In this document: piece by piece, positions 17,993-18,514 of the stretch
How the letters are laid out: every line of letters begins with the position of its first letter
Position numbering within the stretch: position 1 is the first letter of the stretch
Assembly: GCF_003991155.1 (NCBI RefSeq)
Contig: NZ_CP031293.1
DNA from: Escherichia coli
GTDB lineage: Bacteria; Pseudomonadota; Gammaproteobacteria; Enterobacterales; Enterobacteriaceae
Length of the DNA: 64,000 nt
Reading direction: 5' to 3' (one strand)
The notes under the pieces: model-generated
The model's input: the letters and a program-made list of their open reading frames with translations, nothing else
What the model was told of the DNA's origin: nothing
Database searches by the model: none
Made by a program: the position numbers and the translations under genes

Positions 17993-18150
17993 TTTATATC
18001 CTTATTTGCAGTGGTGACCCACACGAAAGATCACATACAAAGAAAAATTTGTTTATTAACAGTTCATTGCGAAACCATCTAGCCAACAAATGCTAAATTG
18101 GTTCGCAATCAGGTACACAAATGAAAGACATTAACCTCTCACCTTCCACC
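17993..18150 (-). promoter_or_regulatory. thrS 5' leader / translational operator region (approximate)
   Basis: RBS context AGGATATAAAATG upstream of thrS; operator function is known from literature; boundaries not resolved here. Confidence 0.5.
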
Positions 18151-18514
18151 CGGTTGAACGATGTTAACACTAAAAAAAGGGAGATTGTACCTTTCCGTTT
18201 CACATTGATTCGATTCGCAATTCGTTTGTAGTGAGTACACCAGCAAAACGCTTAAAGAACCACTGATAACATCACGGAGCGTCTGAAAGGTTTACTGCGA
18301 GCGGATTTGCAGCAGCATAAACTGAATCCAGCAAAGTTCGTTGCGTGATTTGGCGGTACTATTTAAACGATCATAAGATTAATGACGAAGTGGTCATATC
18401 ACAATGATAAAAGTGACACAATTCTTATAGCAATTTTTCGTGCACATTTCGTTCTGGCGATAATAATTAATCATCATCCTCAAAACCTCCAGACATATAT
18501 AAGGCGAAAAGATT

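Follow-up and report, generated by a model that had tools for sequence, protein, structure and literature searches.

The thrS operator of Escherichia coli, studied by Springer, Romby, Moras and co-workers, consists of four domains, of which domains 2 and 4 mimic the anticodon arm of tRNA-Thr, and binding of threonine--tRNA ligase (ThrRS) prevents that of the 30S subunit (PMC3858243, PMC7373986, PMC9976931). The Shine-Dalgarno (SD) sequence of thrS was given as UAAGGA, and the ribosome binding site (RBS) is bipartite, split by domain 2 (PMC3858243). According to the literature model, a ThrRS homodimer would bind domains 2 and 4 like two tRNA-Thr anticodon arms and thereby exclude the 30S subunit, and surplus free ThrRS would repress its own translation. 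The T-box leaders of Gram-positive thrS genes are alike in being thrS leader RNAs that sense the tRNA-Thr system; however, a T-box recognises uncharged tRNA and controls the termination of transcription, whereas the E. coli leader is an RNA mimic that is bound by a protein and through which initiation of translation is blocked. As for the DNA upstream of the gene, Salmonella possesses an island, lpxR to rfc (SL1263-66), between ydiY and thrS (PMC5122947).

The spacer analysed here separates thrS from the divergent gene espL1 (= arpB) in a 64-kb stretch of E. coli DNA, hereafter the window. With a probability of about 0.85, this spacer is composed of two unrelated parts, the control region of thrS and the 5' flank of the acquired gene espL1, and represents a junction of core and acquired DNA. 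Its anatomy, conservation, RNA structure and mosaic origin were observed in the present analysis. The spacer is essentially ordinary and already explained, with the long-known thrS promoter and tRNA-mimic leader beside an espL1 flank; little is at stake, as the finding re-identifies a textbook regulatory leader beside a known, often pseudogenised acquired gene.

Gene map and identity of the spacer

The spacer occupied nt 17993-18514 and measured exactly 522 bp, as had been claimed in the preliminary description, thrS ending at 17992 on the minus strand and espL1 starting at 18515 on the plus strand. The two flanking genes were as follows:

16064-17992, minus strand: thrS, threonine--tRNA ligase of 642 aa (ORF and RefSeq annotation of the identical strain 2016C-3878)
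18515-20413, plus strand: espL1 (= arpB), T3SS effector of the ShET2/EspL family, 632 aa, intact (RefSeq annotation and ORF)

The spacer was 100% identical to that of E. coli strain 2016C-3878; among complete E. coli genomes, 5425 out of 5426 carried it with 95-100% identity. In the RefSeq annotation of strain 2016C-3878, pheS-pheM-rplT-rpmI-infC-thrS share a strand, espL1-yniD have the opposite orientation, ydiY and pfkB come next, and there are no annotated features within 17993-18514. The ThrRS of the window matched the E. coli enzyme of known crystal structure, with a full-length match to PDB entry 1qf6 (E = 0), and entry 1kog was also matched, over residues 242-642.

The thrS leader and its translational operator

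In the 5' leader of thrS, immediately 5' of the start codon, the following elements of the operator were recognised:

17993-18004, minus strand: operator domain 1, SD UAAGGA (18004-17999) and the spacer to AUG (direct sequence reading)
18005-18041, minus strand: operator domain 2, with its core hairpin at 18034-18014 (MFE fold, RNAalifold and pair counts)
18042-18065, minus strand: operator domain 3, an A/U-rich single-stranded linker with the sequence UUAAUAAACAAAUUUUUCUUUGUAU (sequence reading)
18066-18109, minus strand: operator domain 4, the second anticodon-like stem-loop, with the loop AUUUGUUG at 18091-18084 (inverted repeat I1 and MFE fold)
18110-18154, minus strand: 5' end of the thrS leader, predicted 5' hairpin (MFE fold)

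That the spacer contains the thrS leader and RBS was borne out, AGGATATAAAATG being found on the minus strand at the thrS start; beyond the leader and RBS named earlier, the main function of the thrS-proximal third is that of the thrS translational operator. Compared with the described E. coli operator, position, four-domain layout, loops and split RBS were as published, with no detectable difference. The thrS-proximal part is the published thrS operator in another strain, for which ThrRS binding and repression are taken from the literature.

The domain 2 hairpin possessed a 7-bp stem and a 7-nt anticodon-like loop, UUCGUGU (18027-18021), with an outer stem (18041-18005) on either side of it, which runs up to the SD UAAGGA. 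Of the split RBS, the U-rich upstream half, UUUUUCUUU at about 18050-18042, was located in domain 3, and both halves of a split site, the SD at 18004-17999 and a U-rich tract 5' of domain 2, were thus present. In the MFE fold the SD was paired with the U tract, which is not the case in the published operator model. The 162-nt leader had an MFE of -50.7 kcal/mol (z = -3.77) in a fold that contained domains 2 and 4, and in a repeat search the inverted repeat of domain 4 was the sole meaningful repeat, other short pairs being chance-like. The anticodon-like triplets of the window strain were CGU and UGU in the loops of domains 2 and 4.

One genome per GTDB species was scanned with a degenerate pattern of codons that represents the N-terminus of ThrRS; this yielded 95 Enterobacterales loci, Salmonella and Klebsiella being missed by the pattern. 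Forty-one distinct leaders could be aligned to the window through domain 4 (alignment A1); these are referred to as type A, as distinct from the type B leaders treated in the last section. In type A leaders, 85.6% of the positions of the E. coli structure were paired, compared with 33-46% in slid controls with partners moved by 1-3 columns. The covariation score was 0.331 versus at most 0.097 in the controls, 0 of 500 shuffles reached 0.331, and 16 of the 24 pairs had changes on both sides. Domain 2 was paired in 99.7% of cells and showed compensatory GC>AU and AU>CG changes, while 13 of the 17 pairs of domain 4 were changed on both sides. The G and U of both anticodon-like loops were invariant in these 41 leaders, with UGU, CGU or AGU as the triplet of the domain 4 loop in relatives, and TAAGG was invariant in these as well as in the 49 type B leaders. 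Within E. coli, the leader (17993-18154) was identical in the window strain and a K-12-like strain.

Searching nt 17000-21800 on both strands with the Rfam 15 covariance models at E up to 1 gave zero matches, the thrS operator included, and no T-box match. Rfam and annotation pipelines leave this well-studied operator unmarked, and a naive reader would see just a long AT-rich spacer.

The thrS promoter

Upstream of the leader, a conserved block was observed:

18155-18211, minus strand: thrS promoter block, consisting of an extended -10, an A7/T7 tract and conserved sequence to about -220 (conservation)

The extended -10, TGtTAACAT, was located at 18170-18162 on the minus strand and the A7/T7 tract at 18172-18178; TAGTGTTA(A/C)CAT was kept in E. 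albertii, Escherichia sp. E1V33 and Citrobacter spp. Given where the extended -10 lies and a published leader length of 162 nt, transcription of thrS would start at about 18154-18155 (-162). An extended -10 sigma-70 promoter would thereby produce a leader of about 162 nt in which the 5' hairpin, domain 4, domain 3 and domain 2, the last beside the SD, follow one another.

The junction of core and acquired DNA

All 15 type A relatives that reach the promoter, including E. albertii, Escherichia sp. E1V33, C. braakii, C. amalonaticus, Lelliottia and Intestinirhabdus, lost alignment to the window at 18181-18211; by eye, similarity may extend about 20 bp past these stops. The left edge of the acquired segment is set only by the point at which diverged intergenic DNA ceases to align, and it could lie anywhere from about 18211 to 18230. 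As zero polymorphism was observed in 18212-18260 among six E. coli, the thrS-related conserved block may reach slightly further within the species.

Beside thrS, espL1 was absent in all 95 of the non-E. coli Enterobacterales loci. Various cargo was observed between thrS and yniD/ydiY in relatives, as follows:

E. albertii: NleG-like effector
C. braakii and Citrobacter sp. NCU1: Acyltransferase_3 genes
Intestinirhabdus: gtrA and a family-2 glycosyltransferase (gtrB-like)
A Citrobacter MAG: AraC-type regulator

In C. amalonaticus, about 150 nt lead from the end of homology to yniD, with no cargo and no espL1. The Salmonella island SL1263-66 occupies the same chromosomal site and likewise places low-GC cargo directly upstream of thrS, although its cargo is unrelated to espL1. 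At the thrS-yniD junction, genes for effectors and for surface modification have landed repeatedly, and acquired DNA starts merely about 60-75 bp upstream of the promoter of the essential gene thrS.

We conclude from these alignments that 18212-20520 is a lineage-specific insert at a hot spot, made up of a 303-bp 5' flank, espL1 and about 107 bp downstream. On this reading, the thrS-yniD/ydiY hot spot received espL1 in an ancestor of E. coli and one sister clade, and the 5' flank is now fixed in E. coli. No target-site duplications or terminal inverted repeats of at least 9 bp were found at the edges of the insert. Escherichia sp. MOD1-EC7003 aligned to the window up to 18408, then at 19203-19242 and again from 20305 onwards. 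It was considered as a pre-insertion state with the left edge at 18408, and this was rejected because the internal and 3' remnants of espL1 point to a secondary deletion in an espL1-bearing ancestor.

Base composition and polymorphism

Base composition varied along the spacer, on which A-tract, TpA and AT content statistics were computed:

17993-18154: thrS leader, GC 0.377
18155-18239: promoter zone, GC 0.365
18240-18349: spacer middle, GC 0.464
18350-18514: espL1-proximal segment, GC 0.333 (66.7% AT)

The preliminary description had called everything beyond the leader strongly AT-rich. This holds only for the espL1-proximal segment, including 18400-18500 (GC 0.327), and not for the spacer middle. 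The espL1-proximal segment was in the top 2.4% of 165-bp windows of the 64-kb window by AT content; its AT level was matched at eight other places in the window, all but one of which overlapped ORF-free gaps of a crude ORF map, the exception (27951-28845) being largely within an ORF. GC of the whole spacer was 0.379, and that of the seven other divergent spacers of the window spanned 0.332-0.50; with 522 bp, the spacer was the second longest of these eight on the crude ORF map. For a divergent spacer of E. coli, such local AT-richness is not exceptional.

Variable sites were counted among six E. coli from different identity bands:

thrS leader: 1 variable site in 162 bp
Promoter zone (18155-18211): 1 variable site in 57 bp
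18212-18514: 26 variable sites, including indels, in 303 bp
espL1 5' end: 18 variable sites in 200 bp

With one site each in the leader and promoter zone versus 26 in the remainder, the two parts of the spacer are under very different constraint, and 18212-18514 changes at about the same rate as espL1, a gene that is often pseudogenised. When the window strain was compared with the K-12-like strain, 10 of 11 differences were within 18261-18509.

The espL1 gene and its 5' flank

The EspL1 protein possessed the Pfam domain Toxin_15 (ShET2 N-terminal; 2.9e-45) and ankyrin repeats. The view of arpB as an acquired gene was supported by the GC content of its coding sequence, 0.391 versus 0.504 for the window, and by the absence of the gene beside thrS in all non-E. 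coli loci examined. The gene was frameshifted, and hence a pseudogene, in the K-12-like strain, and it carried frameshifts or internal stops in other lineages. Its 5' flank was divided into two segments:

18212-18349, plus strand: lineage-specific, non-AT-rich 5' flank of espL1 (18240-18349 GC 0.46), with no recognisable gene or RNA
18350-18514, plus strand: AT-rich espL1-proximal segment, presumed espL1 promoter and RBS (composition)

The flank 18212-18514 was single copy and was found in 5425 of 5426 complete E. coli genomes; a search for paralogous copies, such as ones preceding other espL genes or carried by plasmids, found none. Four matches in records called plasmids were discarded as not being true plasmid copies, the records having sizes of 0.4-4.9 Mb. 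Among relatives without espL1, homology to 18212-18349 was shared solely by the clade of MOD1-EC7003, which keeps espL1 remnants.

It is very improbable that this distal part hides an unannotated element, whether a gene for a small protein, an sRNA or what is left of a regulator gene once beside espL1. Mechanical ORFs were present at 18121-18231 (plus strand, 36 aa) and 18382-18552 (plus strand, 56 aa), the GC of 18240-18349 is coding-like, and the +1 frame of 18250-18400, read through two stops (TTDNITERLKGLLRADLQQHKLNPAKFVA, stop, FGGTI, stop, TII), resembles by eye the N-terminus of a helix-turn-helix protein. Against these, Pfam and NCBIfam (E up to 10) and Rfam (E up to 1) gave no match in 18212-18514, with which the helix-turn-helix relic was dropped, no ORF of at least 30 aa was found within 18247-18381, and no terminator-like site was seen in a consensus scan. 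Furthermore, polymorphism of 18212-18514 amounts to 8.6 per 100 bp, indels included, and an early stop breaks the 36-aa ORF in E. albertii, as read by eye.

Candidate promoter elements for espL1 included ATGATA-16-TATAGC at 18404-18431 and, by eye, a -10-like GATAAT at 18459-18464 and an SD-like AAGG at 18501-18504. A weak espL1 promoter presumably lies within the AT-rich last 165 bp. Literature searches returned no expression data for arpB/espL1, and one on the EspL1 promoter gave human ESPL1 papers only. In a consensus scan, sigma-70-like sites were not enriched in the spacer (4 found versus 2.8 +/- 1.7 expected), and none scoring at least 9/12 was found on the espL1 strand.

A genomic SELEX peak of the RpoD holoenzyme has been reported in the thrS-arpB spacer, with computational promoter picks in both directions (PMC3946193); RpoD binding is taken from that source. 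The arpB-side pick maps approximately to 18404-18431 on the plus strand. Its exact string, ATGATG-16-TATAAC, was not found in the K-12-like locus, where the -10 is TATAAC, versus TATAGC in the window strain. On the thrS side, the best pick under the peak was TCGTCA-17-TAAAAT (PMC3946193), which maps to 18388-18362 on the minus strand, in the AT-rich part, and would give a second, far-upstream thrS promoter with a leader of about 370 nt. Two more sigma-70-like sites on the same strand (18433-18404 and 18397-18370) were returned by the consensus scan. Such a promoter is nevertheless doubtful and, in our judgement, distinctly unlikely, since the site is a computational pick under a low-resolution peak, falls in the lineage-specific, fast-evolving segment, and has its -10 altered in the window strain by a substitution and an indel (TAAAAT to TAAATA), whereas the conserved proximal promoter is present also in species without the far-upstream segment. 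For both SELEX-based picks, the -10 elements of the window strain differ from the K-12 versions. For thrS, the proximal extended -10 promoter is preferred.

H-NS and the acquired gene

Lang et al. (2007) reportedly defined TCGATAAATT as the high-affinity nucleation motif of H-NS. With this motif, the sole perfect match in the 64-kb window was at 19431-19440, inside espL1, where near matches were also clustered; the single match of the spacer (18432-18441) had 2 mismatches, and a high-affinity nucleation motif was thus not found in the regulatory region. H-NS nucleation, if any, is better predicted in the espL1 gene body than in the spacer.

In a published ChAP-seq table, thrS is scored as having H-NS-bound DNA within its coding region, and not at the 3' end alone, in one or more of E. 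coli SE11, SE15 and K-12, and pfkB was scored like thrS (PMC4720273 S2 Table). This table scores genes, so that the spacer has no score of its own, and arpB is absent from it; three strains are pooled, and the resolution may exaggerate the overlap with thrS. As the 5' end of thrS abuts the spacer, these data are most simply read as an H-NS patch that extends over espL1, the spacer and the first part of thrS. In H-NS genomic SELEX many neighbouring spacers were flagged and the thrS-arpB spacer was not (PMC3946193).

The spacer had been characterised earlier as typical of silenced promoters of acquired genes. This is supported as to the acquired low-GC gene and the AT-rich proximal 165 bp; as to H-NS at the spacer itself, the ChAP-seq overlap with thrS would fit it, whereas SELEX gave no flag and the motif match has 2 mismatches. 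Like H-NS-silenced acquired genes (bgl, proU, LEE and nleB2 promoters), espL1 is a low-GC effector gene with an AT-rich 5' flank and published H-NS binding nearby; unlike them, its best motif is inside the gene, the AT-rich part comprises 165 of the 303 lineage-specific bp, and its spacer was unflagged in SELEX.

The further step, that the whole distal spacer is an H-NS-silenced promoter functionally coupled to the essential thrS operon, is unlikely. It would agree with the composition of 18350-18514 and of espL1, with the perfect motif and near matches in the gene, and with an H-NS-bound region over the thrS coding sequence that is not restricted to the 3' end. However, about 140 bp of the distal spacer (18240-18349 GC 0.46) are not AT-rich, and SELEX skipped this spacer while flagging its neighbours. 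The proposed coupling of arpB control to the thrS operon found no support; the thrS promoter and operator form a separate block that is conserved in many species independently of espL1, including those without it, and that is near-invariant both in E. coli with an intact espL1 and in E. coli in which the gene is a pseudogene. What is preferred is that H-NS, nucleating probably in the espL1 gene body, would cover espL1 and its 5' flank; such coverage, with spreading over the spacer, is likely, as a plausible but unproven proposal.

Two versions of the distal thrS leader in Enterobacterales

The thrS leaders of Enterobacterales were observed to have two unrelated distal versions, types A and B, with an abrupt switch at about -50 and a patchwork distribution within genera. 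Type B accounted for 50 of the 95 loci, which contributed 49 distinct leaders to the alignment, including those of E. whittamii, two genomes labelled E. coli, C. werkmanii, C. youngae, Kluyvera, Pectobacterium and others. These leaders shared 80-98% identity with the window from +59 to about -50, a stretch covering the SD and domain 2, and then continued into an unrelated sequence that is itself conserved; in window coordinates, the sequence shared by the two types ends and type-specific sequence begins at about 18043. Both types occurred within Escherichia, Citrobacter and Atlantibacter and, by record name, also within Kosakonia, Serratia, Buttiauxella and Enterobacter. Within Escherichia, type A was found in E. 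coli, E. albertii and two cryptic clades, and type B in E. whittamii and the two genomes labelled E. coli; in the latter group, about 190 nt from -51 lead directly to the yniD region (window 20521 onwards), with no espL1.

It is tentatively proposed, at somewhat less than even odds, that the distal half of the operator (domains 3-4, 5' hairpin and promoter; about 18043-18211) is one of two ancient, unalignable cassettes that have been exchanged by recombination directly upstream of domain 2, beside the island hot spot. Should the two-cassette pattern be borne out and prove to be new, it would represent a natural experiment in which a mimicry operator was rebuilt while its proximal, ribosome-competing half stayed fixed.

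In place of domain 4, type B leaders possessed a hairpin with a 6-bp stem, a nearly invariant loop, AGAGUGAA, and an invariant G-U. A single-sequence MFE fold of the E. whittamii type B leader recovered neither this proposed hairpin nor domain 2 (z = -1.73). In the alignment, the hairpin was 91.3% paired versus 39-54% in slid controls, with compensatory changes at two pairs. It is probably an alternative second ThrRS-binding arm, as judged from alignment and spacing, and may be an independent solution. The loop G of the type B hairpin was 65-70 nt from that of domain 2, compared with 62-67 nt for domain 4 of type A, and the loop triplets of both types were all NGU, NGU being the threonine-anticodon triplet.

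An integration hot spot between the thrS promoter and yniD/ydiY

Viewed across the window and the thrS loci L006, L034, L091, L073 and L032 from other genomes, the thrS promoter-yniD/ydiY junction is a hot spot for integration. The relevant features of the window are as follows.

16064-17992 (-), thrS
17993-18514, thrS-espL1 spacer
18043-18211, distal part of the thrS leader
18212-20520, thrS promoter-yniD/ydiY junction
18515-20413 (+), espL1 (arpB)

The cargo carried at this position differed among the genera and species, and in Salmonella the corresponding cargo is lpxR..rfc (PMC5122947).

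Cargo at the thrS promoter-yniD/ydiY junction
E. coli: EspL1
E. albertii: NleG-like effector
Citrobacter: acyltransferase_3 genes
One Citrobacter MAG: AraC regulator
Intestinirhabdus: gtrA plus a GT2 glycosyltransferase

The espL1 gene, encoding 632 aa, was intact in the window strain and in H52_982342; frameshifts or internal stops were found in a K-12-like strain, EC32, 95-3322, S56 and FG92-1, and just two remnants of the gene were left in Escherichia sp. MOD1-EC7003.

In E. coli FG92-1 (locus L098), an IS1 lies within the thrS-espL1 spacer, at a site corresponding to about nt 18371 of the window. The spacer beside espL1 was cut down to the espL1-proximal 143 bp, and the far side adjoined the lambdoid prophage genes ybcN, ninE and ybcO; this arrangement implies an IS1-mediated rearrangement.

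Two versions of the distal thrS leader

Across Enterobacterales (loci L003-L097; e.g. L066:1698-1888, L011, L027 and L004), the distal thrS leader occurred in two mutually unalignable versions, type A, alignable with the window through domain 4, and type B. The SD sequence and domain 2 were common to both, with an abrupt change at about -50 relative to the thrS start codon. Type B possessed a conserved hairpin of its own, with the loop AGAGUGAA in which G-U was invariant, and its spacing to domain 2 was about the same as that of the type A domain 4. Escherichia, Citrobacter and Atlantibacter each included both types, as did Kosakonia, Serratia and Buttiauxella when assigned by record name. The 95 loci, obtained by a codon-pattern scan of genome contigs, are an incomplete sample and the census of the two types is not exhaustive, because the scan, whose pattern does match the window sequence, returned no Salmonella, no Klebsiella and no standard E. 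coli representative of type A.

A search of window nt 17000-21800 against Rfam 15 (E up to 1) gave no match for the experimentally established thrS operator, and RefSeq contained no feature in the thrS-espL1 spacer, whereas the nearby Phe leader was annotated.

H-NS motif and AT-rich neighbours

The sole perfect match in the 64-kb window to the high-affinity H-NS motif TCGATAAATT was located within espL1 (nt 19431-19440), flanked by about 10 matches with at most 2 mismatches in 1.9 kb (nt 18690-20438). Over the whole window, 97 matches were counted versus 66.7 +/- 8.3 expected.

The ydiY-pfkB divergent spacer (nt 21499-21781) was more AT-rich than the thrS-espL1 spacer, with an overall GC of 0.339 and values as low as 0.25 in 100-bp windows; pfkB has likewise been scored as H-NS-bound (PMC4720273).
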